This document shows positions 8,369 to 50,006 of a DNA stretch of 64,000 nucleotides, one piece after another; position 1 is the stretch's first letter; the number at the start of each line of letters is the position of its first letter. Under the pieces are notes generated by a model. The model was not told where the DNA came from. It saw only the letters and a program-made list of their open reading frames with translations, and searched no databases. The stretch lies in assembly GCA_963788655.1 (NCBI GenBank), contig CAWBHS010000064.1, positions 1-64,000 on the forward strand, read 5' to 3'. The DNA is from an uncultured Verrucomicrobiae bacterium. Its GTDB lineage: Bacteria > Verrucomicrobiota > Verrucomicrobiia > Limisphaerales > JAFGQR01. The translations under genes were made by a program, and so were the position numbers.

Positions 8369-11300
8369 CTAACGATTCAACGGCTGGCTTAACCGGTAGA
8401 AGTATTGGGTGCCGGGCTGCACCCCAATGGTCACCACGTTCCAGCCTCGCAGTTCGGTGACGGGTTCTCCCACTGGGAGCCAGGAGGCCAGCGATCCCAA
8501 CCGCAGGGAGTATTCCAGCACGTAACCGTCGAATTGCGCCGGCCAGGAAACCATCAATTGGTCGCCGACCAGATCCGCTTGCAAGGACGGCAAGGGGCTC
8601 AAGGCGGTGTTCCCCAGCAGTTCCAAATCGAAGCCCGCATCCGAGTTGGTGGCCGAGCTTTGGTGGAGTTCGACCGCCAACACGTTCACGCCATTGAGGA
8701 GATTCGTCGGACTCACCGGAGCTGGGAAATAATAGTATTCGTTGACGCCGGCAACCTCAGTCAACGCCGGCGTGGTTTCATCAACCGTCCCCTCGGGCAT
8801 GTTGCTCCGGAACACCTCTTCGCCGTTGAGATAGACCACCGCGCCATCATCCCGCAGCATGCGCAGCGTCAAGTCCTGGTATAGCCCCGCATACGGCACG
8901 TCAAACGAATGCCGGAGATACGTCGTGATGTAGTGATTGGTGAAGGGCCCCATCGGCAGGAAGGTCGACTCGTCACCGCGGCCATAACCGAGAATCGCCG
9001 GCCCGCTGTTCCACAGTTGGTCGTCGAAGCCGGGTATCTGCCAGTTCGTGCCGGCATTGGTCCCGTGTGCTTCATATTTCCAGGTCGAACCGATCGAAAC
9101 CAGCGGCCCGCTCACCACCGGCACCGGGCTCGCGAACGCCGCCATCCGCAAGTCAAACGCGAGGTTGGTGCTGGCCTGGCTGGCCTGGTGGACTTCGACG
9201 GACACAATATTGGTTCCGGGCATCAGCAAGGTCGCGCTGGCATACGCCGTCTGAAAGACGTCCACCTGGTCCGGATTGACGTTGGTCAGCGCCAAGGTGC
9301 TGAACAGGACCTGGCCGGTCGGCATGTTGTTGCGGAACACCTCGTGACCGTTCAAATAAACCACCGCGCCATCATCCCGTTTCAGTTCGAAGCGCAGAAA
9401 GTCGTATTGGGCCGTCGGCGCCACGTTGAACCGCTTGCGGAAGTAGTACGTTGTAAACCGGTTGGTGGCCGGGCCGGGATTGAGCACCGTGACGGGATGA
9501 TTGCCAAAGCCCAGTTCGGCCTGTCCGAAGGACCAAACGCTGTCATCGAAGTTCAATATGGTCCAGTTGGTGCCTTGATCCAGGCCATTGTCGAGATACC
9601 GCCAGACAGCACCTTCGGGAAGCAACGTCACGGGCGGTTCCACGAGGGTGACGGTCACCGGCGTGGAGTCGCGGGTTTGGGCGCTGTTGTCGGTGGCCCG
9701 AGCCGTGATGGCATAAGTTCCGGCGTCCACGTTGGACAGCAACACACTGTACGGCGGGGTGTCGGATTGACCTAACTTGCGCGGGCCGGCGAAGTATTCG
9801 ACCAGCGTTACCAAACCATCGCTATCCGTCGCCGTCGCCGCCAGTTGCAGGCTGTCGCTTGCCAAGACTGCGTTGTCCGCCGGGCTGGTCACCGTCACGG
9901 TCGGCGAGGTATTGCTGACCGTGGCATTACCCAGCAATTCGAGGGCAAACGCCAAATCAAAACTAGTGGGCGAGCTTTGGTGGACTTCAACCGCCAGCAC
10001 GTTCACGCCATTGCTAAGGAGTAATGGACTGACTGGAGTCGCGTAATAAAGCTGTTCCGCCAAACCGGTGACATCGGACAGTGCCCGCGTGGTGTTGCCC
10101 ACCGTGCCGGTGGGCAGGTTGCTGCGGAACACTTCAACGCCATTGAGATAGACGCGCGCGCCATCGTCCCGCAAGACGCGGAGGGTCAGGTTGGAATAGA
10201 CGCCGGCATTCTCCACGGCAAAGGAACGGCGGAAATAGGTGGTGATGTAACGGAACGTTGGCGAGCCGCCGTCCACCACGGTGGCCACGTCATCCCGGCC
10301 ATAGCCAAGCAAGGCGGGACCCGCAGCCCAATCGCTGTCGTTGAAATCAGGCATCTGCCAGTTGGCGCCGGGATTGATGCCGTGATCCAGGTATTTCCAA
10401 TCTGATCCCAAAGCCACTATCGGCCCGCTGGTGGGCGGCATCACGGTGACGTTCAGCGTGGAGTTGTTGTTGGCCGAATTGGGATCGTTTTCACTCGCGG
10501 CGACGGCGGCGGTAAACGCGGCAGTGCCCGGCACACTCAGCACCACATTGAAGCTGACGTTCGTCCCGGCACCGGCAGATAGGTCACCCAATTGGACGGT
10601 CAGCACCTGGCCATTGAGCGTGGGGGTACCCAGATTCGAGTTGCTCTCCACCAGCGTAGCCCCGGCGGGCAACTGCTCGGTCAACGTGAGGGCGGTTGCT
10701 TTCGAAGGGCCGTAGTTCGTGATGCCGACATTGATGCTGAGCATCGTCTCGGCAGCCACTTGATTGCTCGAAGCAGTGGACTGGATCACCAAATCGGCCG
10801 AGCCGGGCACCGGCGTGGCGCTCAGAATACTCAGGCTCCAGCCTTGCTCGATGCTGCCCTGATCACCACTGCTGTCATCATAGACATACAATAGCCAGTT
10901 GCCGTTCGCGTTGATACCGGTGAAGGCGGACAGGTTCACTCCGTACGGCCCGTTTGTCGCCGGTGCCGGGAAGGTTTCTCCCGGCGCAAAGTCGGTCGGC
11001 CGGAACGTCCCGGAAACCAGCGGCCCGGTGCTCGTTAACCCGTTCGCACTCTGCCCGTCGAACTTCAACGTCACGTTGGTCACCGCGATGCCGCCGCCGG
11101 TATCGGACATCAAAAGCGATTTCTGACCCAAGGGCGCCACCAGTAGCACGTCGATGTCCTCCGGATAGGTGTGGGCCAATCCGTTAAGGGTGGCGGTGAC
11201 TTTGCTGATCGGGTTGGTCACACCGGCCACCGCAATGATCGACGGATACGGGGAAGCCGGGCCAAACGGCGCAATCAGGATGCGCGTCTTGTTGGTGAAG

Positions 11301-14300
11301 GATTGCTCGCGCGACAGCCCAAATTCAAACCGGGCCAAACCGAGTTGGTTGGTGCCGTCCCGCAGTTGCAAGGTAGCGACAATGTTGCCGCCGCTGACGC
11401 CAATGTTGGAGAACGTGAACAGCCGGCTTGTCACTGGGGCATCGGGTTCGAGCGCGCCATAGACCTGGCTGGACACCGCCCCCGGCAGCACGCCGTTGGT
11501 GGCCAACAGCGTGGCGGTGAAGTTTGCGCTGGTCGGCACGGCACCGATGTTGCGCAAGGCCAGATACGCGGTCACCGTTTCGCCCGGAGCAATCGAGTTG
11601 TCCGCATCGCCCGACAGCGCCGCACCGGCGGCAATGATGGTCGGGGTTGAAGAAATGACAGTGGTGACCAGGTGGGTGGTGTTGTTTGCCAACAACGGAT
11701 CGTGAACTTCCGAACCCACGGCCAGGCCGTTGGTAATCAGACCGGCCTGAGTGGGCGTTACTTCGATCACAATCTCCGTGTTCGTGAAGGCCGGCAAATC
11801 GCCCAGGGCACAATAGACCTGGCCAGCCTGGTTCGTGGCAAAGGCCAACGCATTGCTTACCGAACGCAGCGCCACTGAAGCCGGCAATGTATTGGTCAGC
11901 AGCACGGTGGTGGCGGCATTCGGCCCGCGGTTCGTCACCGTTACCCGGTAGGTCAGGTTGCTGCCCACCCGCACCGGATCCGGCTCACTCACGCCGGAGA
12001 CGGCCAAGTCCGCCGAGTGTTTGACGATGGTGCTGATGGTGGCCGTGTTGTCACTCAGGTTCAAATCGGACAGCATGGACGCCACCGTGGCAGTGCTCAC
12101 CAACGTTCCCGCAGACTGCGGTTCGACGACGACGGTGAACGTCAGGCCGGTTTGGTTGGTGATGAAACCCAGATCAAACACCAGCACGTTGCCGTCTTGT
12201 TCCGGCGGATTGGGAGCGTTGGTCGTTGACAGGAACTGCGCATTGGCCATCAGCGTATTGCTCAACGTAACGCCTTCGGCCACCGCGGTGCCACGATTCT
12301 CCACCGTCACGGTATAACTCAACGGGCTGCCCACATACGCCGTCTCAGTCAAAGCCGTCAGGGTGACGTGCAAGTCAGGCCCAGCGTTGACCGGCACCAC
12401 CGTGCTGAGGTGGAGGCTCCAACCGGAGATGTCCCCGGCGTCCAATCGCTGGTCGTCCATGACGTAGAGTTGCCAATCGCCATTAGGATTGATGCCGTTA
12501 TACACGGCCAGGGATGTGCCATACGAACCGGTGGGCGCCGGGGGCGTAAAGTAATCTCCCGGTTCGTAGTCCGTGGGCCGGTAGGTGTGCCCCGTGATCG
12601 CCGTGGTGTCGGGCAACGGTTCGCCAGCGTTCTGATCAAACGTGAAACTCCACTTGTTCAACGCATTATTGCCACCGGCATCGGACATCAAGATCACGGC
12701 CTGCCCGTCCGGCCCCACCAACAGAATATCCATGTCCCGCGGAAAGCTGTGGCTCACCTTGTTCAGGCTGACTGTGACCTGCGTCAGCACACCGGGAACA
12801 TTGGTCACGGTGATCACCGAGGGGTACGGCGTCGCCGAGGTGGCGTCGTTGACGGTGATCGTTTCGGGATTGGCGAACTCCTGATCGGTCACGCCCAGGG
12901 TAAAATGGAACTCCACTGTGCCCAGCTTGTGGCCGCCTTCGGACAGTTGCAACACCGCCCCGACGGAACCGCCGGAAGCGCCCATTGCCGTGAAGGTGAA
13001 TTCCTGCGGCGACTCCGGGCCATCGGCGACCAACACGCCATAGTTCTGCGGGCTGCTGGGAATGGAAACCCCGTTGGTTTCCAGCAATTCCGCGAGCACG
13101 TCGCCAGTGTTCGCGGTACCGATATTCTGCAGGTAAAGCCAGACGGTGACTTGTTCGCCGGGGTCAATGCCGCCGTTGCCGTTGTCATCGCTCATCAGTT
13201 CCGCCCGCGTCGCCACGATGTTGGCAACCGGTTGCACCACCTCGGTCGTCGCGATGAAGGTGTTGTCGGCCAGGTTTAAATCCCCGTTGTTGCCGCCGAC
13301 ACTGAACACATTGGTCACTGTGCCGGGGAGGCTGTTCGTCACCACGATGGTCGAGGTGGCGCTGGCGCGGGGACCGATGAGGCCGTAGTTAATGCGCAAC
13401 ACCCGGTTCAACAGCGAATAAGTGCCTTGCGAATTCGTCACAGCCACCACGTTCATGTTGGCGGGCAGGGCGTTGGTCAGCACCACGCCGCGGGCCTCGA
13501 GGGGACTGCGGTTGGTGACGGTGACGGTGTAGGTCAGGTTGTCGTTAGCCAAGACCGGATCAGGCTCAGCGGTAACGCTCACCGCCAGATCCGGGGCGCA
13601 CGGACCATGGCCTTCGTTACACTGGATGGGATACAGGGTGAGCGTCCAGCATTCCAATACGCCAACATCGAATTGGCCGGCGTCCACCACGTGCAGTTTC
13701 CAAAGCCCATTGACGGCGGCGCCGGTCTTGCCTTTGAACACCGCCAGTGGTTCTTCGGGACGATACGAGCCGAGGTACGGAGCTAGTCCCTGGTCAATCC
13801 CAACGCGAGCGCGGTCATCGAACGTGGTGCGGCTCGAGTTTGGCGAACAACCCAGTCCGAAGCCGGCACTGTAGCCGCCCCGATTGCGGACCAGAGCGAT
13901 CTCCGTCCCGTCCGGACCAATCAGGCTCACGGTCAGATCAGCGGTGTAGGTGTGCGGCAAGTGCATGGAAACGGTGACCTTGCCAACCGGATCGGCAAAG
14001 CCGAACACTTGCACGGAGGAATTCACTCCACTGGGTTTGTTATCGGGAATCGGCACCGGAGAATTGTTCGCATAACTATTGGCGTTCAGGCTTACAAACC
14101 CGGTGTTCACCACAAACTCATTGGTCCGCACTTCGAGCGAAGACGAAATCACCAGCTTGAACCAGATCGGGGCGCCACAGGGAAATTCCGGCGCGGTATA
14201 GACGCGGAAAGGCGTCAAGTTGACGCCCACCTCGGCTCCTCCCAAGGGAGGATAGGCCGACGTGCCGTCCACCACGGTCACGTAGGTGTTGGTGGTGGAC

Positions 14301-16639
14301 AAGGTGGCCACGATGTTGCCGGCCACCGAGGTCGTACCGTTGCGCAAAACGAGGTTCAACTCCGCGCATTCGTTGTAATCCAGCGTGTTGTTGCCGTTGC
14401 CGGTCAGGATATCGTTGACGACCGTGCTCACGTAACTCAGGCCGGGCATGTCAAACGCTTCCACCACGCCGATGCACGTCGTGCTGTCCGGCGACGTGGC
14501 GCTGCCGCCCATGCCACGTTTGGCAAAGGCCCGCCAAATCTCCATCTGGTTTTCGCCACCGGTGTCCACCAAGTCGGCCTGCAGAATCGCGTCGCGCAGT
14601 TGGAGGAAATTGGGATTGGCCGGCGACAGACGTTCCCCATCGTAAACCAATTGCAGGGCCAGGACGTTGCCATTGGTCCAGCCGTGTTTGGCCACCAAGT
14701 TCACGCGCATTTCCCACAAGGTCATGCACCACACTTCTCCGGCATTGTGGACTTCATCAGCCGGGCCACCAATGATCGGGCTAAGCGGAATCCCCGTGTG
14801 CGGGCTGGCCTGCAACGGATCGATATCCTTGTAGGTTAGCGGATTCTTGAGCAGGTTCGTGGAATAGGGATAGCGCCGGATGCCGAAGTAATAATTCTCC
14901 CGGAAAGGAGGTACAATATCATAAGTAACGTATCCTCCGTTCGGATAAACGCCGCCCAAATCGTCCGATGGTTCGCTCAGGGTCGTCATCGCGAAGAAGT
15001 CGGAATTGCCTTCGTGAATGGCGCCGGACTGGCCGAAATAATTCACGCCCACGCCGCCGCCGAGCGTCCGTTCGGTAATCCCGTGGGTGTGTTCGTGCAA
15101 AATCACATCGGATGTAAGCGCGCAATCCCGCCGAGGGGTGGGTCCGTCAAAGACATACATCCGCATCAAGGGAGCCGTGCCGTCCGGCGGGGTGGACATG
15201 GTGGCATTGTTGGCAAAGCCAAACAGTTCCCCCCACAGTGCCATGGCGTTGACCGGATCCTGGTCCAGGCCGCCACGGCCGAAGTTGTCCAATTGAAAAT
15301 TTCCGGCCGCTTCGGTGAAGCCCAGCCGGTATATGAAATCGTGGTACCGGTTGTTGATGTAGAACAACTGCACTACCGAGGAATCGGTGTAATTCGTCGG
15401 ATCCCCGGTAAGGTCCTGCGGAAAATCAAACACGCGAAACGGAACGCCTTGAGGCCGCGGCCCGTCGGGTTGCAAATTGCCATCACGATCGAGGAAGGCA
15501 TCCACATTGTTGCCCATGGTGGTGTTGTCGCCGTCATTGATCCAACCGTTGGGCGAGGCGTTCGTGTTCAGCGCGTCAATCACCAGCAACTGCCGCGGGG
15601 TCAGCGGCGGCTGGTTGATATTGGGGGTGAACCAACCGGGCGTGAACGGTGAGGGATCGTCACTGGTGTACACCCGGTAGGTGGCGTTGGTAAGATAGCG
15701 GGTCAGCCCCCGGCGCACGAGCATGTCGCCGTTCACCGCATCGACCAGCAGGAGGAACATTTCATGGCGGCTGCCGCTGTTGAGGATGATTTGCCAGCAC
15801 AATTTCAGGTTGGCCCGGCTCATCGGCAGCCAGACCAGTTGCGCCTGCACGGTACCCTCGAGGGCGGGCGCGGCGTTGAATTGCTGGTGCTGGGCCGCAC
15901 CTTGCGGTTGGCCAACGGCACTCACCTGCGCTGCGGTCAACGTATCGTCGCCGACGTTGCGGGCGGCCGCCACAATCGCTTGCGCAGCGGTGATCGGCGG
16001 TGCGGTCTGTACGGCGGCACGGTTCGCCACGCCGGCATCCGCGGCTGCGGCAGCGTTCGGAACAAAATGAGTGGCCAAGTTCACCAGTTCACCCTGTTTG
16101 GTAATGTTGCCGATGATGACCGCCTGGTACACCGGAATGCCGTCCAATTGCTGCTGCCAGACCGTCGTGCGCAGTCCGTTGTGCGGAGTCACATAGTCAC
16201 GTTGCACGGTCGCGCTGGCCAGAATGTCCGCGCCATAGCCGTACCATTCGGCGTGTTCGTTTAAGAAAGCTTTAACCGACCGGTGCGGATCGCTGGCCGG
16301 AATGGCCTGGGCGTAAGCCGGATCGATACCCAATCCTTCAGCCTGAGGACCACTCAGGAAGGTGAAGCGCGAGGAGACAAATCCGGGCGTGCCCAGGATC
16401 GGGTCGGTTTGCGCGTCCAAGCCCGGAACCCGTTCGGTTAAGGCGTTCACCTTTTGGCCCTGGCCCGCCGGTGCGGCTTCGATCGGCACCGGCACCGCCA
16501 ACCGCCGATCAAAATCCTGAAGCTGAGGGCGCGCAGGCGCTCGAAAGGCCCGGGCGACATTGGTTAATCCCGCGGCCAACACCAAACTGGCCGCGAGCAT
16601 AAAGAGGTTCCGTTTCGCGCTCATATTCAAATTACACAT
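8369..16639 (-). CDS. Giant secreted M36 (fungalysin-family) metalloprotease with P-domains, DUF11 repeats, Ig-like and jelly-roll modules and FYRL tail (2756 aa)
   Basis: Signal peptide; FTP/PepSY-like propeptide; HEHTH plus EGNSD zinc motif; GIRRYPYS and EVHNAGEVW. Three proprotein-convertase P-like domains (H[TS][YF]..D....L..P.G...NG.W.L.V.D), DLAV...V.N.G DUF11 units, three W[KR]Y modules, C-terminus ...QYFYRLSQPLNR. Confidence 0.9.
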   Translation of the reverse strand: MCNLNMSAKRNLFMLAASLVLAAGLTNVARAFRAPARPQLQDFDRRLAVPVPIEAAPAGQGQKVNALTERVPGLDAQTDPILGTPGFVSSRFTFLSGPQAEGLGIDPAYAQAIPASDPHRSVKAFLNEHAEWYGYGADILASATVQRDYVTPHNGLRTTVWQQQLDGIPVYQAVIIGNITKQGELVNLATHFVPNAAAAADAGVANRAAVQTAPPITAAQAIVAAARNVGDDTLTAAQVSAVGQPQGAAQHQQFNAAPALEGTVQAQLVWLPMSRANLKLCWQIILNSGSRHEMFLLLVDAVNGDMLVRRGLTRYLTNATYRVYTSDDPSPFTPGWFTPNINQPPLTPRQLLVIDALNTNASPNGWINDGDNTTMGNNVDAFLDRDGNLQPDGPRPQGVPFRVFDFPQDLTGDPTNYTDSSVVQLFYINNRYHDFIYRLGFTEAAGNFQLDNFGRGGLDQDPVNAMALWGELFGFANNATMSTPPDGTAPLMRMYVFDGPTPRRDCALTSDVILHEHTHGITERTLGGGVGVNYFGQSGAIHEGNSDFFAMTTLSEPSDDLGGVYPNGGYVTYDIVPPFRENYYFGIRRYPYSTNLLKNPLTYKDIDPLQASPHTGIPLSPIIGGPADEVHNAGEVWCMTLWEMRVNLVAKHGWTNGNVLALQLVYDGERLSPANPNFLQLRDAILQADLVDTGGENQMEIWRAFAKRGMGGSATSPDSTTCIGVVEAFDMPGLSYVSTVVNDILTGNGNNTLDYNECAELNLVLRNGTTSVAGNIVATLSTTNTYVTVVDGTSAYPPLGGAEVGVNLTPFRVYTAPEFPCGAPIWFKLVISSSLEVRTNEFVVNTGFVSLNANSYANNSPVPIPDNKPSGVNSSVQVFGFADPVGKVTVSMHLPHTYTADLTVSLIGPDGTEIALVRNRGGYSAGFGLGCSPNSSRTTFDDRARVGIDQGLAPYLGSYRPEEPLAVFKGKTGAAVNGLWKLHVVDAGQFDVGVLECWTLTLYPIQCNEGHGPCAPDLAVSVTAEPDPVLANDNLTYTVTVTNRSPLEARGVVLTNALPANMNVVAVTNSQGTYSLLNRVLRINYGLIGPRASATSTIVVTNSLPGTVTNVFSVGGNNGDLNLADNTFIATTEVVQPVANIVATRAELMSDDNGNGGIDPGEQVTVWLYLQNIGTANTGDVLAELLETNGVSIPSSPQNYGVLVADGPESPQEFTFTAMGASGGSVGAVLQLSEGGHKLGTVEFHFTLGVTDQEFANPETITVNDATSATPYPSVITVTNVPGVLTQVTVSLNKVSHSFPRDMDILLVGPDGQAVILMSDAGGNNALNKWSFTFDQNAGEPLPDTTAITGHTYRPTDYEPGDYFTPPAPTGSYGTSLAVYNGINPNGDWQLYVMDDQRLDAGDISGWSLHLSTVVPVNAGPDLHVTLTALTETAYVGSPLSYTVTVENRGTAVAEGVTLSNTLMANAQFLSTTNAPNPPEQDGNVLVFDLGFITNQTGLTFTVVVEPQSAGTLVSTATVASMLSDLNLSDNTATISTIVKHSADLAVSGVSEPDPVRVGSNLTYRVTVTNRGPNAATTVLLTNTLPASVALRSVSNALAFATNQAGQVYCALGDLPAFTNTEIVIEVTPTQAGLITNGLAVGSEVHDPLLANNTTHLVTTVISSTPTIIAAGAALSGDADNSIAPGETVTAYLALRNIGAVPTSANFTATLLATNGVLPGAVSSQVYGALEPDAPVTSRLFTFSNIGVSGGNIVATLQLRDGTNQLGLARFEFGLSREQSFTNKTRILIAPFGPASPYPSIIAVAGVTNPISKVTATLNGLAHTYPEDIDVLLVAPLGQKSLLMSDTGGGIAVTNVTLKFDGQSANGLTSTGPLVSGTFRPTDFAPGETFPAPATNGPYGVNLSAFTGINANGNWLLYVYDDSSGDQGSIEQGWSLSILSATPVPGSADLVIQSTASSNQVAAETMLSINVGITNYGPSKATALTLTEQLPAGATLVESNSNLGTPTLNGQVLTVQLGDLSAGAGTNVSFNVVLSVPGTAAFTAAVAASENDPNSANNNSTLNVTVMPPTSGPIVALGSDWKYLDHGINPGANWQMPDFNDSDWAAGPALLGYGRDDVATVVDGGSPTFRYITTYFRRSFAVENAGVYSNLTLRVLRDDGARVYLNGVEVFRSNLPTGTVGNTTRALSDVTGLAEQLYYATPVSPLLLSNGVNVLAVEVHQSSPTSFDLAFALELLGNATVSNTSPTVTVTSPADNAVLASDSLQLAATATDSDGLVTLVEYFAGPRKLGQSDTPPYSVLLSNVDAGTYAITARATDNSAQTRDSTPVTVTLVEPPVTLLPEGAVWRYLDNGLDQGTNWTILNFDDSVWSFGQAELGFGNHPVTVLNPGPATNRFTTYYFRKRFNVAPTAQYDFLRFELKRDDGAVVYLNGHEVFRNNMPTGQVLFSTLALTNVNPDQVDVFQTAYASATLLMPGTNIVSVEVHQASQASTNLAFDLRMAAFASPVPVVSGPLVSIGSTWKYEAHGTNAGTNWQIPGFDDQLWNSGPAILGYGRGDESTFLPMGPFTNHYITTYLRHSFDVPYAGLYQDLTLRMLRDDGAVVYLNGEEVFRSNMPEGTVDETTPALTEVAGVNEYYYFPAPVSPTNLLNGVNVLAVELHQSSATNSDAGFDLELLGNTALSPLPSLQADLVGDQLMVSWPAQFDGYVLEYSLRLGSLASWLPVGEPVTELRGWNVVTIGVQPGTQYFYRLSQPLNR

Positions 16640-16762
16640 TCCGAGAAAAAACTTCGTTCCCCGATTCGGAAGCCCTAATCGCTCCCGACCGGCGATCTTG
16701 CCGACGCATCCTTGCGCGTGCTGTGGACGTGATCAGTCCCGCCGGCAGCACGCCGGTTTAAT

Positions 16763-19700
16763 TCAAGGCACCATTTCCAACCGGTAATAGGCATGGACGC
16801 CGCTGCTGACCGGAAGCCGCACAACATTCCAACCGTCTTCCACCACCGATGGCGTCGCAACCGGCGATCCAGTTCACCGGGATTTCAGACGTAGGGGTGG
16901 TTTCCAGGACAAAGTTCATTCCTCCATCGAGCCAGCGAATCTCCAACGAGCCTTGATTGATCGAGAACCGCAAAGCCGGGACAAAGACTGTCGTTGTGAC
17001 TTGTGCCGCATTGTTGGCCGTAACCGGATCGAAGGAATCGTTCGTGACACTGGCCGTGTTGGTGAGGGTCAGGGAGTCTCTTATCGACGACGCCACCTCT
17101 GCCGTGACCTTGAGGACGGCGTAACCATTCACGGCCAGGTTGGTGATCAGACCGCTCACCCGGCCGGAGGAAACCTTCAGTGGCTCGGCGCTGGTGCTGC
17201 TGGTGTCCAGGCTGGCTGACTGCACATTGACGCCGGCCAATTGCGGTGACAGCGCGTCGAGAAAGAACACGTTGCTGGCCGGGTTTGGACCATGATTGGT
17301 CAGCATCATCGAATACGTCACGGTGCCGCCCGGCATGACCACTTCCGGCGCCCCGGTCAGGACCACGGACAAATCGGCCGCCAGAGCAACGGTGGTTTTG
17401 AGATGGCTCGTATTGTTCCCCAAATTCAGATCGGGCGTGTCGGCGGCCACAGTGGCGGTGAAATCCAGGGTTCCCGGCGACGCCGGCGCGGTCACCACCA
17501 ACGTCACGGTAGCCCGGCCGCCCACCGCCAGACTGCCCAGGCTCGCAATGACGTTGCGGCCGGACACCGTCAAGCTGCCCACGCTGGTATTGCTGGACTG
17601 CAAAGTCGCCCCCACGGGCAACAGGTTGGTCACCCCCACGTTCTGCGCCGTAGCCGGCCCGTGGTTGGTGACGTCCACGGTGTACGTCACCGGAGCGCCG
17701 AGGGAGGCGGTAGTCGGCGACGCGGTAACCTTCACCGACACGTCGGCCACCGGCGCGAAAGTTCCGCCGCCGTTAATCGAGATGGACCAACCGCCGGCAA
17801 TGACACCGCTATCGAGGCCGTTGTCATCAACCACATACAAGGACCAATTACCGTTGGGGTTCACGCCAACGAAATCCGTCAGTGTCGTGCCGTTGGCGAA
17901 GCCAGGACCCGGCGGCGGGAAGTAATCCGCCGGCACTTCAAAATTCGTGGGCCGATAGGTGCCAGAGGTTATCACCCCATTCTGCGGCAAGGTGTTGGTC
18001 GAGGTGTTGTCAAAGGTGAGCGTCACGTTGTCAATGGAGCCTTCCCCAGCATCGGACATGAGGATGACACTGCGCAGAATGGCGTTAGGATTGTTGGGAT
18101 CTTGCAACGCCAAAGCCATGTCAATGTCCTTGGGAAACGTATGGCGCATATTGCGAACCGTGACCGTAAGGTTGCTCACCAATCCGGCCACGTTGGAAAC
18201 GGTGATGAAGGACGGGTACGGCGAGGCCGGCGCGTTATCATTGATCGTGATCACGTCGGCGTTTTCATACGTGAGCGAGACCCGGCCGAGCGTGAACGGC
18301 ACGCGAATGATCGCGTTAATTAGATCGCCTTCCCGCAGCACCAAGACCGCCGTGAGCGTGCTGCCGATGGTGCCTTGCGCCGTGAAGGCAAAGTCGCGCG
18401 CCACGGCGTCGCCGCCCGCCGTCAACACGCCGTAATCGTTGGTGACCCCGGTGGTACTGCCGCCAAACACGACTCCGTTGGTCGCCAGCAGGGTGGCCTG
18501 GAGATTGATGGTATCGTTGGTGCCGCGATTGCGGAAGGCAAACGACACGGTCACCGCTTCGCCCGGATCAATGAAATTATTGGGCTGCGTTTCGCTCACC
18601 AGTGCCGCCCCGGCAAACTCAATGATGCCAATGTCCGCATCCCGGATGGAAACGGTCGCCTCAGCGGGGCTGCCAATAAGCACGCCGCCCTGCGGATTGG
18701 AGAGCTTGAGATTGAAGGTTTCCATGCCTTCGACCTGACCGTCCAGGTTGATCGGAATCACGAGGCTCTTCTGAGACTCGCCGTTGCCGAAAGCGACCAC
18801 GCCGGTGGCATTGGTGTAATCCACGCCCGCCGTGGCGTTGCCGCCACTGGCGGTGTACTGCACGGAAACGGCGCGATTGGTGCCGCCGGTGCGCAGCAGC
18901 GGAACGACCAGGTTGTTGCCTTCATCCACGGTGTAACTGGCGGAGGACAAGGCGATGATGCCGGCGTCGTCCACAATGTCGAGCGTGGCAAATCCGGCCG
19001 TTGGTTCAATGAAGGCGCCCACCGGGAAGGCGAGTTGGAGGTAGAGCGTCTTGACCCCTTCCACAATGGCGTTGGTGAGGATCGGCACCAGCACGGTCTT
19101 GTTCGTGAGATCCCCGTTGGCCCAGGTCACCACATTGGAGACGTTGACGTAGTCCTGGCCAGCCAGGGCGGTACCGTTGATGGTGTTGAAGACGACGGAC
19201 ACAACGCCGTCGGAGAGACCATTGCGCACCAGCGTGATCATGGCGTTGGTGCCCTTCTCGCTGACGACATAGTTGGTTTGCGCAAAGCCGACGCTCTTCT
19301 CGTCGTCCAAGATCAAAATGATGGCGGTTCCCTGGCCGCTAATCACGCCGTTGGTGGACGGATCGAGCAACGCCAAGTTGACCGTCTGGTTCCCCTCGAC
19401 GTTGAACTCGTCCAGAATCTGAACGCCAAAGGTGTTGGTAGTCTGGCCCGGCAGGTAATCCAAGACGCCATTGGCGGGCAGGTATTTCAGGAAAGCGGTG
19501 GCGGTGCCATCGCTGGTCGCGAAATTGACGGACGCCGGAAAGTTCGTGGCGCCAAACCGGTTCACCTGGATGATCAGGTTGGTGTAGGACTCGACCACCG
19601 TGTACACCGCCGAACTGAAGCTGAAGGCCGCGTCGTCATCGACAATCTTCAGCGGCACGGTGATGCGCGGGCCGAGGATCACCAAGTCGGTGGCGTTCGA

Positions 19701-41434: not shown

Positions 41435-41482
41435 ATTAAGCTCTCCGAACTGAAATACAGGTCAATGGCATGGATCGGCGCC

Positions 41483-44400
41483 TCATGGTTGTTGAATCCG
41501 GACGCGATAGAACCGGGAACTGCCCGGCGGCACGGCATCGGTGATGGTCACGGGATTGCCGGAAGCGTCGCTGACAAAATTGGTCAACACCTGCCAGCTT
41601 GGCGACGACAGATCGTCCTTGTACTCGACGATGTTGGACGCACTGATCAGCGGGTTCCACGACAGCCGGGCCGTCCCGGACGGCGCCGGAACCAGTTCGA
41701 TCACCAAGCCCAGATCTTCCGGCACGATGAAGGGGGTCGCGTCGTTGGCATTGGCATAACCGTCGCCGTCCGAGTCGATGTCCTTGCTGCTGGCCAGGGC
41801 GGTGTTGAAAGGGCCGTAGGTCACACCGGAAGGATACGTGATGTTGGTGGAACTGTTCATTCCCGTGTAGCTGCTGATCCAAATCAGCCGGCCACTGTTG
41901 TGGCTGTTGAGTTTTTCGACCGGCAGATTGGCGTTGGCGAAGTAAATCTTCATCCCCGGATCAATCCGCAAGGCGGCGTTGTAGTTGGTGGGGTTGTCGA
42001 GCAACTCGAGGTAATCGACATACAGTGCGTTGTTCGTCGTGGCCGGCGAAAACACAAACAGCGAACCGGGCGTGCCGTCCAGCGTAAGCCGTCCCAAGGC
42101 GAGATTGTTGGCGTAGCCCTGGTTGTTCGGGCCGCGGTCCTCGCCCGCCCAGGTGTGATCCGCGCGCCCGGACAAGCCGGGGATGATCGATTGCAGCCGG
42201 GTGCCGAGCAAGTCGCCGAATTGCGGTTTCCGATCAAAATGGAAGCCGGACGTCACGGTCCATTCATTGTTGGCATTGGTGCCGCCGTCGGTGAGGCGGT
42301 TGGTTACGGACATGATCAAGGCGCCCAGCGCGTTCGAAACGCCGGCTTGATACCGGGTGAATTGGTTGGTGAGGTTGTCGGCAAAGATCTGAATGTCGCC
42401 ACTGGCCACCATCTGGGCATTGGTCAGATCGCCGTTTTGGGTTTCGAGGGAAAGCAAACCGCTGTTGGCGTTGATTTGACCACTGCTGGCCAGGTTGGGC
42501 GAACCGTGGTTCTCGAAGTACTCCGTGCGAATCACGTGGGTGGCCCCGTTGATCTGGCCATGGTTGACGAAGTTCTGGTACGGCGAAGCCGGTTCGGCCC
42601 CAAAGTAACCCGCCCCAGTAATGCCGATGTAGCCTTCATTGGTGAGGTTGACCAAATTCGGCACGTCGGTCTGGTTCCAATTGGTGTTCGCTGGAAAGAT
42701 CAGCGCGCCCTGCACGTCAAGGTTGGTGGCCTCCAGGTACACTGTGTTGCCGATGGAAAGCGTGTCGCCAATGACCAGGTTGGTGGCGTGCGCGGCAAAA
42801 TCATAGACCACCGTCGGCCGGATCGTGGTCAGGGCGTTCTCGACGACCAGCGCATGAAAGGCAATCTCGATGCTGTTGGTCGTCGGCGTGGCGTTGGTCC
42901 CGACCCCATTGGTCGAGACAAAGTCAGCGATGTTGGTCCAAACGCCCGACCAGGCATTCACTTCGCCGGACAGGCGCCGCACCGTTGCCGGCGCGAGATT
43001 GCTGATGACCAGCGTCGGTTCCACGGAGGCCAGGTCATATATCAGGTAGGGCGCATCAACCTGGGCCACGCGGTTGCTGGTGAGGTTGCTGGTCTTGATG
43101 CTCAGCAGCGATTCCGACCGGATGCGGGTTTGATCCAGATTGACCCGCCCGCCGACAATTTCGACGCGGCCCGGCATGTTCGTCGGGTCCGTGGTGACGC
43201 CGGTCGTGAGGAACAGCGAGTTAATGGTGCTGATCGTGCCCACCAATTCGTCGCCGATTTGGGCGCCGTAGCCGGCATACATGACCTCCACCTGATTGGA
43301 CCGGTAGCTGGGATTGACCACTAGCGTGTTGGTCCAGGGGAAGTTGTTGGTGATCGGGGTAAAGACATAGGTTCCGTTCGTAAAGATGTAGTTACCACTG
43401 TTCCAATCGTAGGGCTGGCCGCGCACGACCGCCAAGCTGGAAGGCCGGCGGGTGGTGGGGGTCAAGCCATTGCGTTGCAGGGTGATATTCGTCACCGTGG
43501 CGGTGTCATCAATCACATAGACGGAGTTGGTGATACTACGCTGCAAAACAATGTCGTAATCCGAGGTGCTAAAGCGCACCATGGCGCGATACCGACCGCT
43601 GATAGCCCCGTGGCCAGTATCCCCATTGCCGGTAGAAAAGTGGACTTCGGTGCTGAAATTCGTATCGACGCTGTTGGTGGGAGCAAACACCATTTGCACC
43701 ACCCAATTGCTGGGCGTCACCGTATTCGTCAACACCCAGACGTTCGTACAAGATCGCTGCCCAGACTAAAGCCGAAAGACCCCGCCAGGCACCACGGCGG
43801 AGTTGGTGCCCGTCGAGTTGCGGACGAAGACCTGGTGATAAGGCGAACTGGCGTAGGGCACGCCGAAGTTCGGCTGGCTAAAGGAGAGTCCATCCAACGA
43901 AATGAGCGGCATCGGCCGATTGGCGTTGTTGAGGGTGTTGTTTAGACCTTCACCCCAATAGACGTCGTTGACTCCGGCATCGTTGTAAAAGGTGTTCCCA
44001 ATGTAGATGCCGCTGGAGATAAGGGAGGTGTCGTCCGACCCACTCCGTAGTCCGGTTCGTTCGATATCCACCAGATTGGAGCCGTGCAACTTGATGATGC
44101 CCCCGGCGCTGGTCAACAAGTCCCCCGAACTGATGATGTTGGTGGCAAATACCAACAGGACGGTGCCCACGGAAATCTCGCCGCGGTTCACAAAATTGTC
44201 AGCCGCCAGGCGAATGGAATTGGTTACAAAATCAAACCGGAAGCCGGGCGAGGCAAACATGGTGCCGGAGCCGGTATTGGTGAAGTTGAGGCAGTTGGCA
44301 AAGTCGTAGAGGTACAGCGACGATGACACCGAAAAAGCGCTGCGGTTAACGAAGGCGGTCGCATCGACCTGGGGCGCAATGTCCGGCGGCGCAAGTACTG

Positions 44401-44491: not shown

Positions 44492-44529
44492 AATTTCAGG
44501 CTTGGTTCAGACATGGGCCAGGGCGACGG

Positions 44530-47500
44530 TTAGGGCGGGTTCACTGGGGGCGTCAGAACCTCTTCTTCAAGTTGCCGGAGGGTGACGGAGTCCGGAAATA
44601 CCACCGGGGGGTTGGTGGTGCCATCGAAAGCGCCCCAAACGAAACCGCCTAGCGTCGTCGTGCTGCTTTCATCCAGAAAGAAAGGTGTCTGGTTCTCGTA
44701 ATAGGGCAATTGATCGGAAAAACGCAGCCGGATGGGGGGGCGAATCACCCCCGGACCAAACTGCGCCGCCTGCCCATTAATCGCATCGTTATTCTCCCAA
44801 TTACCGGTTCCGCTGCGCAGGTTGAGCACCGGCGTCAAGTTATTGACCAGTCCGAGATCCTCAGCCAATAGCAGAATGTCGGGCTCCCCCACGATCCGCC
44901 GGACCACTTGGGAACGTTGCTGGTAGTTGGTAATGACATTTTCCACATACTGGTTCGTAAACGGTAAAAAGAACTGTCCGATCAGCGAGTCGTACCGGTA
45001 GGTGACGTTCTCGAAATAGAGTTTGTCCACCCCCGGCCGGATATTGACGCTGTTAGTGGTGGTCTGGAACTCGACCGGATACGCCGACGAATAAACGTTG
45101 GTCACAGAGGTGACGACAATCGGATTGGTGGTGCCGTAAATATTGGTGCCGCCGGCGTTCGTGCTGACCCCATAATACCGCTGCACCGGGTACGCGGCGA
45201 AGACATATCCCGTACCGTAAGTGACGAGTTGTTCGTTGGTGTAGCTGACCAGGTTGGTGGAGGTCACGTTGGTGCCGGTTACATTGGTGCCGACAACGTT
45301 CGTCCCCAGGAATGCGGGTTGCAGAATGTTGGTGAACTCGAGGTAATTCGTCAGGAGGGTGGAAATCAATTGGTAGCCCACCAGGTTGGTGGGAATGATG
45401 TAAATGCTCCCGTTGACGAAATTGCTTTGATACGCCTGGTTGACCACACTGGTTTGCACAGTACCTGGGGCACCAAAAGCAGGCGGATAGACTTTGATCA
45501 ACTGATGGTTGACCGGGCTGCTGGTGAAGAACGTGTTGGTGATGACATTCCCGTAGGTGTGATAGTAGTTGGTCACTAATATGTTAGTGACCACCGGCAC
45601 CGAAGCCATGATCAGGGTACCCGCCGGCGCATAGGGCGGGTTGGTCAGGTAGGTCAAATAATTGGTGAACGCCTCGGTTGACAGCGTGTAGTAGCTCGAG
45701 TTGATGATCAGGTCCGGGTAAATGGTCTGCATTGCCGCCGGGGAATTGGTTTTCGAAATCGCATTGAACTCGGCCAGGTTGGTCGTGAACACCGGCACTG
45801 GCGAATTGGTATCGACAAAATAACCCAGGTCGATGGTGGCCAAATTGGTGACCGGGACCACGTTGGTCAACAGATCCTCGATGAACTCGTAGCCATAGAG
45901 GGCGGGGGGCACAATATAGACGTTGCCATAGCCCTGGCCGACCGCGGCAAAGACCTCGGCATCGGGGGCGCCCAGCAGGTTGGGCACGGTGGGGTCCAGG
46001 CCGCCGTCAGGATTGAGCCGGGCAAAATTTGTGCGGCCATTTCCGACGCCGTTGGTGACCGCGAACACCCCGCCAACCAGTAATGCTCCATCCCAGTTCA
46101 AACCGATCGTGTTGACATGCGCCGTAGCCGACGCCTGGAAATTGGTGGCGCGAAAACCGGGATCCAAACTGCCGTCGTGATTCAAGCGGGCCAGCAGGGA
46201 GCGCTGGGTGCCGTTGACGTTGCCAAAACTGCCGCCAATAACGATTTGTCCCTGCTTATTGGTGATCACGGCATTGACCGCCGCGCTGACAAAGGCGGTA
46301 AAATTGGTGTCCACGCTGCCGTCCCCATTCAACCGCGCAAGGTGGCTTCGTGACAGCCCGTTAACGTCGGTGAAATCACCACCGATCAGCACTTGGCCCG
46401 TTTCTTGAAGCGCCATGGATTTGACGGTTGCGTTGGCCGCCGCGACGAAATTCGGGTCGAGCGTCCCATCCGCATTCAACCGCGCGAGGTTGGTGCGCGC
46501 CCCGTTGTTAACCGTGGTAAAAGCGCCGCCGATCAGCACCTGTCCGTCTCCTTGCACGGCCACCGTATGGACCGCTCCGTTCGCCGAGGTCACAAAATCG
46601 GTATCCACACTGCCATCAGCATTCAGGCGGGCGATGCCAGCTCGCGGCAGACCATTGACAGTAGCAAACTCTCCTCCTGTCAGCAGCTTGCCATCGGCTT
46701 GCACCGCAATCGCCGAAACCGGTTGATCCACCAGCGGCAAAAAGAGCACGTCCACACTGCCGTCCAAATTGAGCCGCGCCAGATGAGGCCGGTCCATGCC
46801 ATTGACCTGCGTAAAGTCGCCGCCGACCAGCACCTTGCCATCCGGTTGCACCGCGAGGGCGTGGACGGGGCCGTTGACATTGGGAGTGAAGTTGGTGTCG
46901 AAGGTTCCGTTGCCATTGAGCCGGAGCAGATTCGCCAACGGATCCGTGAAGGACCCCCCCACCAGCAACTTCACCCCGGATAAGTTGGTCAGCAGGTTGT
47001 CGAAGGTGTAATCGTAATAGGCCAGGATGTTGGTCGTGAGGTTGGTGGAGACGAATTGCGACGCCGAAACAGGCTGCGCCGGAGCGTTCGAGAAGTAATA
47101 CAGCACGTTGGTCACCACCTGCCGTTCCAAGATGGTTGAATTGGTTCCCGCGATGACCAGGTTCGTGTAGAGCGATAACAGCTCGGTGGAAGTATTGGTT
47201 GTGTGGTGGGTGTTGAAGATGAACTGCTCGAGGTCAATGTTCGTCAGCAACAGCGGAACGTCAGCCCGGTTCGTGATCGCCACCAAGCTGCCGGGCAGGA
47301 TGCGTTCGGCGGCCTGGTTACCCGGCCGGTACAGGAATCGCAAGCCGCCCACGTCATCGCGCGTTAACCCAATCCAGAATTGGCCCGTGCCGGAGGCAAA
47401 ACTGGAAACCGGCGCCGGATTGCCGTTGGCCAAGGAAATGGTGTCGAGGCTCCGTTCAATGGCATCGGCGTAATTCTGCGGCGCAATGGGCTCCCTGATG

Positions 47501-48075
47501 TCGTAGCCGTACAGTGAGCCATTGACGTAGCTCGAAGGGGCCCAAGTCACCGGATCGTAGTTCAGTTTGATGACCGTGTAGTTGGTGTAAGTGACGCCGC
47601 CGATGGTTTCCGTGTTCCGCCCGCGCAGAGCCCAGGTCCAGCGAACCGCATCCGCCAAGCCCATCTGTTCGGTCATCATCTCCAAGATTTGCGATTTGAG
47701 ATCCAGGATGCCCAGCGCGGAGGCCCGGTAATTCTGGCGCAGCGCGTCGGTCTGGGGGAATTCGGTCAGGTTGGCGCTCATTTGCGATGCCGGGGGCAGC
47801 GCGTTCAGAATGGCAAAAGCTTTGTCCGCCTCATCCATGCCTCGCGTCCCAAAATACTTCAGGAACGAGGCATCCACAGCATAGTAAATATTGGTGACGT
47901 TCCAACGGTACCCTTCGGTGAAAGTCATCGGGCCGCCGATATCGCCGGGCAGGTCGTAACCCAGCGCGGTCACCTGCCATGTCTTGTTGGTCCCAATCAA
48001 CGAAAAGGCTTGCGCCCCACCCGCCGTGGCCAACACCAGCGATACCAGCAACAGTTGTTTAATCAATCGCATCAT
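44530..48075 (-). CDS. Secreted protein with degenerate matrixin-like N-domain and inserted delta-60 repeat block (1181 aa)
   Basis: Signal peptide ending AQA-FSLIG; YRWN...IYY; DLKSQILEMMTEQMGL; LTRDDVGGLRFLY; about six Q.DG...GG.F...ARLN.DG repeats; TN-rich C-half. Confidence 0.75.
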   Translation of the reverse strand: MMRLIKQLLLVSLVLATAGGAQAFSLIGTNKTWQVTALGYDLPGDIGGPMTFTEGYRWNVTNIYYAVDASFLKYFGTRGMDEADKAFAILNALPPASQMSANLTEFPQTDALRQNYRASALGILDLKSQILEMMTEQMGLADAVRWTWALRGRNTETIGGVTYTNYTVIKLNYDPVTWAPSSYVNGSLYGYDIREPIAPQNYADAIERSLDTISLANGNPAPVSSFASGTGQFWIGLTRDDVGGLRFLYRPGNQAAERILPGSLVAITNRADVPLLLTNIDLEQFIFNTHHTTNTSTELLSLYTNLVIAGTNSTILERQVVTNVLYYFSNAPAQPVSASQFVSTNLTTNILAYYDYTFDNLLTNLSGVKLLVGGSFTDPLANLLRLNGNGTFDTNFTPNVNGPVHALAVQPDGKVLVGGDFTQVNGMDRPHLARLNLDGSVDVLFLPLVDQPVSAIAVQADGKLLTGGEFATVNGLPRAGIARLNADGSVDTDFVTSANGAVHTVAVQGDGQVLIGGAFTTVNNGARTNLARLNADGTLDPNFVAAANATVKSMALQETGQVLIGGDFTDVNGLSRSHLARLNGDGSVDTNFTAFVSAAVNAVITNKQGQIVIGGSFGNVNGTQRSLLARLNHDGSLDPGFRATNFQASATAHVNTIGLNWDGALLVGGVFAVTNGVGNGRTNFARLNPDGGLDPTVPNLLGAPDAEVFAAVGQGYGNVYIVPPALYGYEFIEDLLTNVVPVTNLATIDLGYFVDTNSPVPVFTTNLAEFNAISKTNSPAAMQTIYPDLIINSSYYTLSTEAFTNYLTYLTNPPYAPAGTLIMASVPVVTNILVTNYYHTYGNVITNTFFTSSPVNHQLIKVYPPAFGAPGTVQTSVVNQAYQSNFVNGSIYIIPTNLVGYQLISTLLTNYLEFTNILQPAFLGTNVVGTNVTGTNVTSTNLVSYTNEQLVTYGTGYVFAAYPVQRYYGVSTNAGGTNIYGTTNPIVVTSVTNVYSSAYPVEFQTTTNSVNIRPGVDKLYFENVTYRYDSLIGQFFLPFTNQYVENVITNYQQRSQVVRRIVGEPDILLLAEDLGLVNNLTPVLNLRSGTGNWENNDAINGQAAQFGPGVIRPPIRLRFSDQLPYYENQTPFFLDESSTTTLGGFVWGAFDGTTNPPVVFPDSVTLRQLEEEVLTPPVNPP

Positions 48076-48083
48076 AGGAATCC

Positions 48084-50006
48084 TTAGCGCACGCGGATCA
48101 CTCGGTAGAATTCCGCCTCGTTGAGGCTGCCCACCAGCACCGAGTCGCTCGTATCAGCCGCACGACGCAGCGAGCCGTAATTCTCCCAGCCATTAAAGTT
48201 CACCGACTTCTGCACCTGATACATGTAACCGGGTTCGCTGTTCCAAGTCAGCCGCCCGCCCTCGGGCGTCAACGTCAAGTGCGTCTGCAACACGCTCGCG
48301 GCATCGACGGGGCTGGTGCCGCTGAGGAACTCCAGCAGGTTGTTCGCTCCGTCATGGTCCGAGTCCACGTTCGGCGAGGGCCAGTTCTCCGGATTCGGCC
48401 CCCAATACATCTGCTGCCAACTGTCCGGCAATCCGTCGAAATTGGCGTCCAAGCCCCAGGTGGTGGCCTTGGCCGCGGCGGACAACGGCGAGAGCGTACC
48501 GTCCTTGAACCGATACGCCAGGTTGAGGCGATGCGCGGAACCCGGCGGCAAACCCGTCACCACATAGTAATTGTTGGTCAGGGTAATCGGGGTCGGATTG
48601 GTGTCCTTGTCGATGAACAACTCGTAATGCTGGAGGTTGAAGAAGCCGGCCAATTCCGGCCAACTGACCGCCAACTCACTCGCACTCAGCGCCACCACAT
48701 AAGGTGCGCTGGGCGGATCGGTGACCACGCCGATGCTCACATACCGTTGGGCGTATAAATCAAAGCTGCTCGACCCACCGATAAAACTGGTCCACACCAC
48801 GAGAAACCGGCCCGAGGGATCGGCCGCCACCGCCGGATGAATCTGTTTGCTCACGGTGTATTCCCGGTTGACCAGAAACTCCTCGGAGGAGGGCTGTCCG
48901 TTGTGCAGGTAGCGCCCGTAAACCCCTTCCTGCGATCCGTCCTGCCCGAGGCTGTTCCACACCACCATTTGGTCGGCGCCAATGGCGGCGATCCGCGGCG
49001 CAAACTGATCTCCGTAAGTGAAGACGTTGAGCCGCACCGGCAGGCCGTTGGTCAGACCCGTAGCCGAGAACGCTCTTCCGTAAATGTCCCAGCCGTTGTT
49101 GCGATCGAGCGTGTCACGCTGATTCCAAACCACGGTCAAGCCGCCGTCGGACAAACTGGCAATCACCGGATTGGCGCAGATGGGAACCTCGTACAAACCG
49201 GCGCGGAGGTCATCCGTAACCGGAAGACCCTGCGCGTCAAAAATACGGCAATAGACAATGGCATTGGCCGTCACCGCGTTGGTGGTATTGAAATCGGTAA
49301 CCCGCAAATTGCTCACAAATTCGGTGACCCACGCCACGGCAAAATTCCCGTTCGATAGGGCCGTCACCGCCGGGCTTCGTTGATTCTGCGCGTCGAAGCG
49401 GTTGACCTTGAATTCCGGACCCAGTTTCTGGCCCGTGGCCGAAAACCGCTGCGCCCACACGTCCAACATGGTGGGGCCGTTGCCGTAGCTCGTCCACGCC
49501 ACCACCACGCTGCCATTGGCGAGCACCGCCACTGCCGGTCCGATTTGATTCTCGCCGTTGGCGGAGTCCACTTGCACGTCGCCGGTCACGAACGTCCCAT
49601 CCGCGGCGAGGAACCGCGCATAAATGTGTTGAAAGCCGGGACGCCCGCCCTGCCACACAAACACCGCGCCGCCATCGGGGAACAACGCGAGCCGCGGATG
49701 TTCCTGATCGAGATCTCCTTGTTCATTGACTTGAAAGCTGGCGAGCTGGCCGGAAAAGGAATTGTTCAACCACCGCGCGCTGAGGCCCAAACCACTGCCG
49801 TCCGTCAGGTTGTCTTCCCACACAACATAACCACCGGAGGCCGCCACCTGGATATCGGGAAAGACCTGATCGCCGAGGAGGTTGCCGGCAATGGCATACT
49901 GTTGGGCCTGGGGGGCATAGGCGTTCTGGGCCCGTCCCCCGAACGGGAAGGCCAAAGCAAAACTCAGCAGTACCAGCTGCGAAACAAGCCGTATCGGTGA
50001 TGGCAT
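48084..50006 (-). CDS. Secreted repeat (beta-propeller-like) protein with FN3-like domain, TSP3-like Ca motifs and FYRV tail (640 aa)
   Basis: Signal peptide; repeated F.VN....Q..P.VA....G..VV.W....DVY..R units; VSWP...Y.VTGLPPGS FN3-like segment; DANFDGLPDSW and DSDHDGANNLLEF; C-terminus AEFYRVIRVR. Confidence 0.78.
   Translation of the reverse strand: MPSPIRLVSQLVLLSFALAFPFGGRAQNAYAPQAQQYAIAGNLLGDQVFPDIQVAASGGYVVWEDNLTDGSGLGLSARWLNNSFSGQLASFQVNEQGDLDQEHPRLALFPDGGAVFVWQGGRPGFQHIYARFLAADGTFVTGDVQVDSANGENQIGPAVAVLANGSVVVAWTSYGNGPTMLDVWAQRFSATGQKLGPEFKVNRFDAQNQRSPAVTALSNGNFAVAWVTEFVSNLRVTDFNTTNAVTANAIVYCRIFDAQGLPVTDDLRAGLYEVPICANPVIASLSDGGLTVVWNQRDTLDRNNGWDIYGRAFSATGLTNGLPVRLNVFTYGDQFAPRIAAIGADQMVVWNSLGQDGSQEGVYGRYLHNGQPSSEEFLVNREYTVSKQIHPAVAADPSGRFLVVWTSFIGGSSSFDLYAQRYVSIGVVTDPPSAPYVVALSASELAVSWPELAGFFNLQHYELFIDKDTNPTPITLTNNYYVVTGLPPGSAHRLNLAYRFKDGTLSPLSAAAKATTWGLDANFDGLPDSWQQMYWGPNPENWPSPNVDSDHDGANNLLEFLSGTSPVDAASVLQTHLTLTPEGGRLTWNSEPGYMYQVQKSVNFNGWENYGSLRRAADTSDSVLVGSLNEAEFYRVIRVR

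Follow-up and report, generated by a model that had tools for sequence, protein, structure and literature searches.

Five proteins encoded in a 64,000-nucleotide stretch of DNA from an uncultured Verrucomicrobiae bacterium (positions 1–64000 of contig CAWBHS010000064.1, hereafter the window) end in a small C-terminal domain, here called the tail. The new observation is that, within the order of the source genome, tail genes occupy a conserved block directly behind the Amuc_1101–1098 secretin operon. We tentatively interpret the tail as a folded label by which Sec-exported proteins would be directed through the secretin, a channel resembling that of type II secretion systems (T2SS), to the cell surface. 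The assembly amounts to 8.96 Mb, is 86% complete and is rich in frameshifts; the names of homologues suggest Verrucomicrobiota subdivision 3.

The five tails of the window

The tails and the genes that carry them are arranged as follows, together with a tail-less gene that lies among them.

8369..16639, minus strand: gene 1, 2756-residue M36 metallopeptidase with P-domains and DUF11 repeats, tail at the end; intact
8369..8590, minus strand: tail domain 1; profile match, 40 bits
16763..32184, minus strand: gene 2, adhesin-like protein of about 5140 residues (Calx-beta, DUF5122 propeller, DUF11); frameshifts near 21800 and 16870
16763..16975, minus strand: tail domain 2; interrupted by a frameshift (near 16870), 29 bits when read through with X
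32212..41434, minus strand: gene 3, about 3070 residues (Calx-beta, DUF5122), paralogue of gene 2; frameshifts near 40860 and 32790
32212..32430, minus strand: tail domain 3; profile match, 62 bits
41483..44491, minus strand: gene 4, secreted protein of about 1000 residues and no known family, member of the conserved block behind the secretin; broken near 43744–43774
41483..41710, minus strand: tail domain 4; the copy folded by AlphaFold2
44530..48075, minus strand: secreted protein that has no tail, its N-terminal domain being specific to the order; conserved position between genes 5 and 4
48084..50006, minus strand: gene 5, 640-residue secreted repeat protein; intact, conserved as the first gene behind the secretin or the exonuclease gene
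48084..48305, minus strand: tail domain 5; profile match, 39 bits

A preliminary description of this DNA had reported five diverse giant proteins with Sec-type signal peptides that share a tail ending in [FY]YR[LV]. All five tails are present at the coordinates given there. Four are in frame and carry this motif, with the stop codon 4–6 residues later; tail 2 is the one interrupted by a frameshift. The word giant fits genes 1–3 but neither gene 4 nor gene 5, and the diversity is reduced by genes 2 and 3 being paralogous (44% identity over 1253 residues). Signal peptides, judged by eye, are visible at all five N-termini, but in genes 2, 3 and 4 separate open reading frames (ORFs) of the assembly encode the signal peptide and the tail, which are joined only on read-through. 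Gene 4 is a single gene because a single-ORF orthologue aligns over the break in one frame and three single bases are missing at this place from one contig of a relative. For genes 2 and 3 the same is probable, as the corresponding slot of G193 holds intact homologues that bear the tail. The conserved PilM-like gene (56262–58158) is also frameshifted, which suggests that the frameshifts of the window are assembly errors rather than decay. The window was absent from the DNA runs searched, and the one RNA run (share 0.07) represents relatives only and gives no evidence of transcription.

Pairwise similarity among the five tails is weak: four of the ten pairs are matched or beaten by at most one of 500 shuffles, and the four pairs that involve tail 5 are not significant in this test, in which tail 2 was joined two residues off. 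Their homology therefore rests on the family profile, against which tails 1, 3, 4 and 5 score 39–62 bits. Tail 2, which the model never contained, reaches its 29 bits with an E-value of 5.6e-6; unrepaired, it scores 7.8 bits.

A large family of C-terminal domains

The profile was iterated from four window tails (17, 153, 209 and finally 215 matches). A windowed search of the genome at E<0.01 gives 241 matches, 208 of which are terminal, i.e. end at most 20 residues before the stop codon, while reversed decoys give none. The C-terminal placement anticipated by the preliminary description is borne out in ORFs of at least 300 residues, where 136 of 156 matches are terminal compared with 5.6 expected, and in 60 of 61 database homologues. 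The 95,028 library matches to the profile include cross-matches to classical FN3 domains and are not usable as a family size.

The domain is about 75 residues long, with a conserved R-F-Y-R end and a terminal proline. Most tails in the genome stop 3–5 residues past the R-F-Y-R-type motif, and proline is the last residue in 106 of the 208 (background 9.3%). The sequences are otherwise varied: 201 of the 208 are distinct at 80% identity, and an alignment of 153 tails has a median pairwise identity of 21%. Tail-bearing ORFs span 475 kb of the genome. Existing Pfam and NCBIfam models do not describe the domain: the four in-frame window tails match no NCBIfam family, and their sole Pfam match, to CemA (E 0.26), is at chance level. 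A hydrophobic segment (19-residue window, mean hydropathy of at least 1.6) occurs in only one of the 208 tails. The earlier statement that the tail has no transmembrane helix is thus upheld, as is its separation from PEP-CTERM and LPXTG signals, since the combination of motif, transmembrane helix and basic tail is not found. No description of the domain was found in the literature searched; most subscription papers, supplements and InterPro lay outside that search, so absence from print is not established.

Domain scans of 43 of the 61 homologues show passengers of extracellular type: subtilases, M36 peptidases, GH2, amylase and GDSL enzymes, as well as cadherin, Ig, LamG, GloVer choice-of-anchor repeats and autotransporter-associated repeats, the last with no barrel listed. 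Among 120 M36 homologues with varied middles, 74 end in the tail, and the remaining 46 include many that, by eye, seem truncated or frameshifted. A homologue search for short proteins gave only three matches. Among the M36 families of NCBIfam are ones dependent on type IX secretion systems (T9SS), myxosortase or rhombosortase. As M36 families carry known sorting signals at this place and the M36 protein of gene 1 ends in the tail, the tail sits where sorting signals sit. By a signal-peptide heuristic, 39 of 50 database tail proteins are positive, compared with 4 of 33, 1 of 12 and 9 of 23 in three sets of cytoplasmic controls.

Predicted fold

The AlphaFold2 model of tail 4 has six strands (predicted local distance difference test score, pLDDT, 86.6). 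Foldseek matches it mostly to FN3 domains, none with an E-value under 0.001. VIA-align also returns mostly FN3 domains, at middling Z-scores (best Z 7.7, root-mean-square deviation 2.0, 71 residues aligned); FN3 structures (PF00041; PDB entries 3mpc and 4u3h) superpose with Z 7.0–7.7 and deviations of 2.0–2.8 over about 70 residues. In these alignments the final strand of the FN3 structure is left unaligned, for example in 3mpc, where residues 9–79 of 96 are covered, and the alignments end some 14–17 residues short of the ends of single-domain FN3 chains. The sequences agree with this picture: weak sequence matches connect the tail to 3mpc and, through the profile, to FN3con, and the classical FN3 motif Y-x-Y-R-V-x-A-x-N aligns with R-F-Y-R-[LV], where the tail stops. 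At the position of the tyrosine corner, arginine is found in 74% of tails, compared with tyrosine in 84% of classical FN3 domains.

The tail is thus predicted to be an FN3-like six-stranded sandwich without strand G and with arginine in place of the tyrosine corner. It is an FN3 derivative that falls outside the seven-strand definition, and it differs from FN3 further in its shorter repeat period and nearly always terminal position. The edge left open on strand F may serve as a binding site.

A shortened FN3 domain might simply cap or protect the C-terminus, or bind a common ligand, and have spread by domain shuffling with no part in sorting. Its FN3 ancestry and the cross-matches of the profile to classical FN3 repeats would fit this, and the terminal proline could help by resisting exopeptidases. 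However, the classical FN3 copies retrieved alongside the tails are internal and retain strand G, the distinct R-F-Y-R motif is common to varied passengers at the low median identity given above, and the tail occupies the place of known sorting signals. We regard the absence of any sorting role as quite improbable.

A conserved block behind the secretin operon

The secretin operon and the gene that closes the tail-gene slot are composed of the following.

56262..58158, minus strand: Amuc_1101-like PilM-type fusion; split by a frameshift
55248..56252, minus strand: Amuc_1100-like protein; NF038287 at E 1.6e-14, under the cut-off
54416..55237, minus strand: membrane-anchored protein at the Amuc_1099 position; assigned by position only, no match to the NCBIfam model
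51546..54389, minus strand: Amuc_1098-like secretin with an N-terminal TPR region; NF042912 at 335 bits, under the cut-off of 750
50544..51446, minus strand: 5'–3' exonuclease gene, optional operon member
7860..8327, minus strand: coaE, conserved gene closing the tail-gene slot

None of the machinery genes of the operon ends in a tail. A gene 5 orthologue follows the secretin, with or without the exonuclease gene in between, in all 22 informative loci out of 24. On contigs that reach further, gene 5 is succeeded by the tail-less gene, then gene 4 and, in most cases, coaE; this order is the same in all three near-complete genomes. The tail is found at the end of 18 of 21 complete gene 5 orthologues and 15 of 17 complete gene 4 orthologues. 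In G193 and G197 the slot holds extra tail proteins, as in the window. The loci with the conserved block are kin and not independent.

The tail-less protein has an N-terminal domain of about 245 residues that is mostly single-copy; within the order 57 of 61 genomes have it, and it was found in none of 80 elsewhere, which rules it out as universal machinery. Pfam and PDB sequence searches with this domain gave nothing convincing, its fold prediction reaches a pLDDT of only 43.5 and there is no support for its being an inactive matrixin-like domain. The gene may serve as a marker, and its product may be an accessory to the secretin operon. In two genomes of the order with only one or two tails, G157 and G184 (L151–L154), the tail-less gene is present in several divergent copies that are scattered and, at the loci retrieved, lie apart from the secretin operon.

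Outside the order, the secretin is followed by proteins with tail-like ends in G141, G138 and G054, and in G081 these lie two genes further on; some score only 5–13 bits. In family f4 a protein of 1500–4600 residues with a tail-like end stands behind the secretin in three of four genomes. A 1364-residue protein directly after the secretin of G060 (L123:7923-12014) has a third kind of terminal domain, which we presume to recur in Opitutaceae. In the tail-negative genome G048 (L128:938-9838), two autotransporters lie just past coaE, near the position of the tail genes in other lineages.

The locus resembles MUL2 of Akkermansia (Amuc_1098–1102) in its order of Amuc_1101, Amuc_1100, the gene at the Amuc_1099 position, the secretin and then coaE, as far as the available part of its description goes (PMC13174399). 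Unlike MUL2, a variable array of tail-protein genes stands here between the secretin and coaE, and no gene lies between the epimerase gene and the Amuc_1101 homologue, where other lineages have an extra gene. In the available text of the MUL2 paper (PMC13174399), neither cargo nor a sorting domain is mentioned.

Directly upstream of the operon, positions 58312–63977 of the window encode an exosortase, an exopolysaccharide (EPS) sugar transferase, an epimerase and glycosyltransferases; this exosortase/EPS order upstream of the secretin recurs in L088, L100, L101 and L109. We take the PilM–PilN-type fusion and the membrane-anchored (not lipoprotein) partner before the secretin to be closer to GspL/GspC than to type IVa pili.

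Other export routes in the genome

The genome contains eight secretin matches. Platform-like genes are present in the window, and five GspE/PilB/PilT-like ORFs were found in the genome by motif, none of them in the secretin operon. PorV has no match in the 86% complete genome, with a control that matched in Bacteroides; SprA has none either, but its control query matched nowhere. The C-terminal, 12-stranded autotransporter barrel PF03797 has no match in the genome (the control matched in three), and two Omp85 proteins are present. Beside the exosortase of the window, a crude pattern finds only five PEP-CTERM-like ends in the genome.

Within the source genome, three of eight secretins are followed by tail genes (p 0.02). 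Tail genes stand directly behind other secretins at G000 C89:78818-89446 and C43:26919-32904 and in L171 and L177, in some genomes only.

Proposed routing through the secretin and its alternatives

In the routing that we propose, the signal peptide would take the protein to the periplasm, where the tail would fold. A periplasmic part of the secretin machine would then recognise the open edge of strand F together with the free C-terminus, and the protein would pass through the secretin as in type II secretion. The candidate recogniser is either the TPR/N-terminal region of the secretin or the membrane-anchored protein at the Amuc_1099 position. In favour of this routing are the terminal placement of the tail, its position in the place of known sorting signals, the conserved block, and the outcome of the searches for other routes, which gave neither PorV nor an autotransporter barrel but eight secretin matches. 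In a panel of 80 genomes (43 tail-positive, 37 tail-negative) used for co-occurrence, an Amuc_1098-type secretin is present in all 43 tail-positive genomes, and all eight secretin-negative genomes are tail-negative. Fisher's test gives p 0.0013, an overstatement because the eight double negatives come from three families. Eight tail-negative genomes (G010, G013, G016, G022, G049, G064, G082 and G085; f13, f20 and f30) carry divergent, tandemly duplicated Amuc_1098-like secretins.

Several observations weigh against this routing. The secretin is also found in 29 of the 37 tail-negative panel genomes, and the eight genomes that lack it represent only three families. Outside the order the link between tail genes and the secretin holds in 4 of 20 loci overall, and outside the class a tail gene follows the secretin in none of eight tail-positive genomes (one locus truncated). 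A general link of tails to all secretins was rejected, since tail genes follow other secretins at 3 of 20 loci (p 0.22), not above background. Inside the block, the product of the middle gene has a signal peptide, and none of 22 copies ends in a tail. Gene 5 ends in a different domain of about 140 residues at three loci whose genomes hold 100–140 tails. In the frameshifted source genome, the signal-peptide heuristic gives no contrast between tail ORFs (63 of 147) and background (1317 of 3458). Furthermore, 33 of the 241 genome matches are non-terminal. The domain is nearly always terminal, in line with the expectation that it would not often be internal, but genuine N-terminal, internal and tandem copies exist: genuine non-terminal copies make up about 8%, about half of these directly behind the signal peptide, and there are tandem arrays of 3–10 copies. 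Finally, the Akkermansia locus is described, in the parts of the sources available, as a pilus-like or attachment system (10.64898/2025.12.30.696933, PMC13174399); these sources also ascribe to it an important role in acquiring mucin and a likeness to a secretion system.

By eye, the 33 non-terminal matches comprise about five classical FN3-type cross-matches, about five frameshifted ends and about 20 genuine copies without strand G. Those at G000 C39:43870, C49:292904, C21:47239 and C78:3229 precede a further domain, which we take to be formylglycine-enzyme-like, and form a recurring exception in placement. The 150 best library matches, a selection that favours repeats, divide into 109 proteins with G-less units only, 14 with pure FN3, 22 mixed and five unclassified. 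In 102 of the 109 G-less-only array proteins the last unit is the C-terminal end.

The N-terminal, internal and tandem copies would suit an avidity module, and with it a dockerin-like anchor: export would read other features, and the strand-deficient tail would then bind a surface scaffold or glycan, perhaps accepting a β-strand as its missing strand G. The repeat period in arrays, 78 residues for the tail type compared with 92 for classical FN3, makes the G-less unit a repeatable module and fits an anchor, as does a DxDxDG or GTxP motif of calcium-loop type directly before 45 of the 208 tails. The replacement of the tail at the three loci points in the same direction. At one of them gene 4 likewise has the other terminal domain, so the end module is exchangeable. 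This domain (L089:10374-10793, L090:3678-4097, L109:15086-15505 and 22207-22626) has no NCBIfam match and was not found in G000. Against an anchor, clustering of tail-gene neighbours yielded mainly other passenger families and pilin-like genes, and no scaffold or repeated partner emerged. The giant passengers would also still need an export route, and none but the secretins was found. We consider such an anchor rather unlikely, although it is the main rival of the proposed routing.

The pilin-like neighbours bear on a further alternative, in which the tail would hook proteins to a pilus or pseudopilus of the Amuc_1098-type machine via adjacent pilin-like adaptors, export and display being one step. 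Of 35 prepilin-motif genes, 10 have a domain gene at most 1.5 kb away, compared with 9.8% of background genes (p 0.0015); for comparison, 10 of 70 sulfatase-motif genes lie near domain genes. The conserved block also stands behind a locus that has been described as pilus-like. Such a neighbour is, however, present at only about 10 of some 240 domain genes, and pilin-like genes may cluster with any secreted gene, with or without a tail, the comparison having been made with background and sulfatase-motif genes. Display on a pilus appears improbable.

Since routing through the secretin, anchoring and pilus display together far outweigh the absence of a sorting role, it is very probable that the tail serves localisation in some way.

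Comparison with known sorting signals

The likeness to C-terminal domains (CTDs) in T9SS substrates, which the preliminary description had drawn, holds in part. Like the type A CTD of Bacteroidota (TIGR04183/PF18962), the tail is a C-terminal β-sandwich of 70–80 residues on unrelated signal-peptide passengers; both occur tens to hundreds of times per genome and have passenger families such as M36 in common. The likeness fails in that the tail matches no CTD model, of type A or type B, has six FN3-derived strands, occurs without PorV and has N-terminal, internal and tandem copies.

In T2SS, loops of the Fn3 domains of PelI and Pel3 are secretion signals that contact GspC and GspD, a precedent for the routing proposed here, and the signals of T2SS substrates are regarded as structural and composite without a common linear sequence, according to the accessible part of PMC7949064. 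The Fn3 domains of these Dickeya and Pectobacterium enzymes resemble the tail as Fn3 modules on an exoprotein, and PDB entry 4u49 (Pel3) matches its fold with Z 6.8, not above other FN3 rows. They differ in being seven-stranded, N-terminal and confined to one enzyme family; they are not sufficient alone for secretion and are no shared modular tag. PEP-CTERM, GlyGly-CTERM and MYXO-CTERM are also C-terminal signals on varied passengers, and the latter two need T2SS to reach the surface (10.1101/2023.06.07.544157, as far as its available part states). Unlike the tail, for which no protease partner was found and which lacks a helix, all three have a transmembrane helix and a dedicated protease.

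Distribution

The tail was found in 81 of 150 sampled genomes of the phylum with three successive profiles: 72 with the first, eight of the 78 negatives with a broader one and one of the remaining 70 with the third. In the order of the source genome, all 25 genomes picked from 60 are positive, with one to at least 150 matches each. Atlas clusters and the source names of homologues point to Verrucomicrobiota, the phylum that the genome searches covered. Within the reach of these searches, the proposal that the tail is lineage-specific stands at the scale of the phylum, across which its occurrence is patchy.

A few Akkermansia-like genomes of family f6 have one or two tail proteins and the secretin locus. 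In the same family G081 has 79 tails and one autotransporter, and the seven panel genomes of genus g6 have 0–1 tails and 3–20 autotransporters, a contrast in favour of the proposed routing. A general anticorrelation between tails and autotransporters was not supported: many tail-negative genomes are also without autotransporters, and G071 has both.

Biological implications

Verrucomicrobiota are abundant degraders of polysaccharides, and T9SS and autotransporters do not explain, in genomes like this one, how hundreds of large enzymes and adhesins come to lie outside the outer membrane. It is conceivable, though doubtful as a whole, that the phylum has its own counterpart of type IX secretion, in which the Amuc_1098-type (MUL2) secretin machine reads a strand-deficient FN3 tag that is transferable and is carried by as many as about 200 proteins in a genome. 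If so, a type II-like system would have in the tail its modular sorting domain, and the Akkermansia 'pilus' locus would be recast as the main exporter of surface enzymes and adhesins in the phylum. Because T2SS signals have no common linear sequence, a transferable tag would make substrate recognition directly testable, and the Akkermansia-like genomes with one or two tails and the secretin locus would offer a genetically tractable setting. The tail profile would then also predict the surface proteome.

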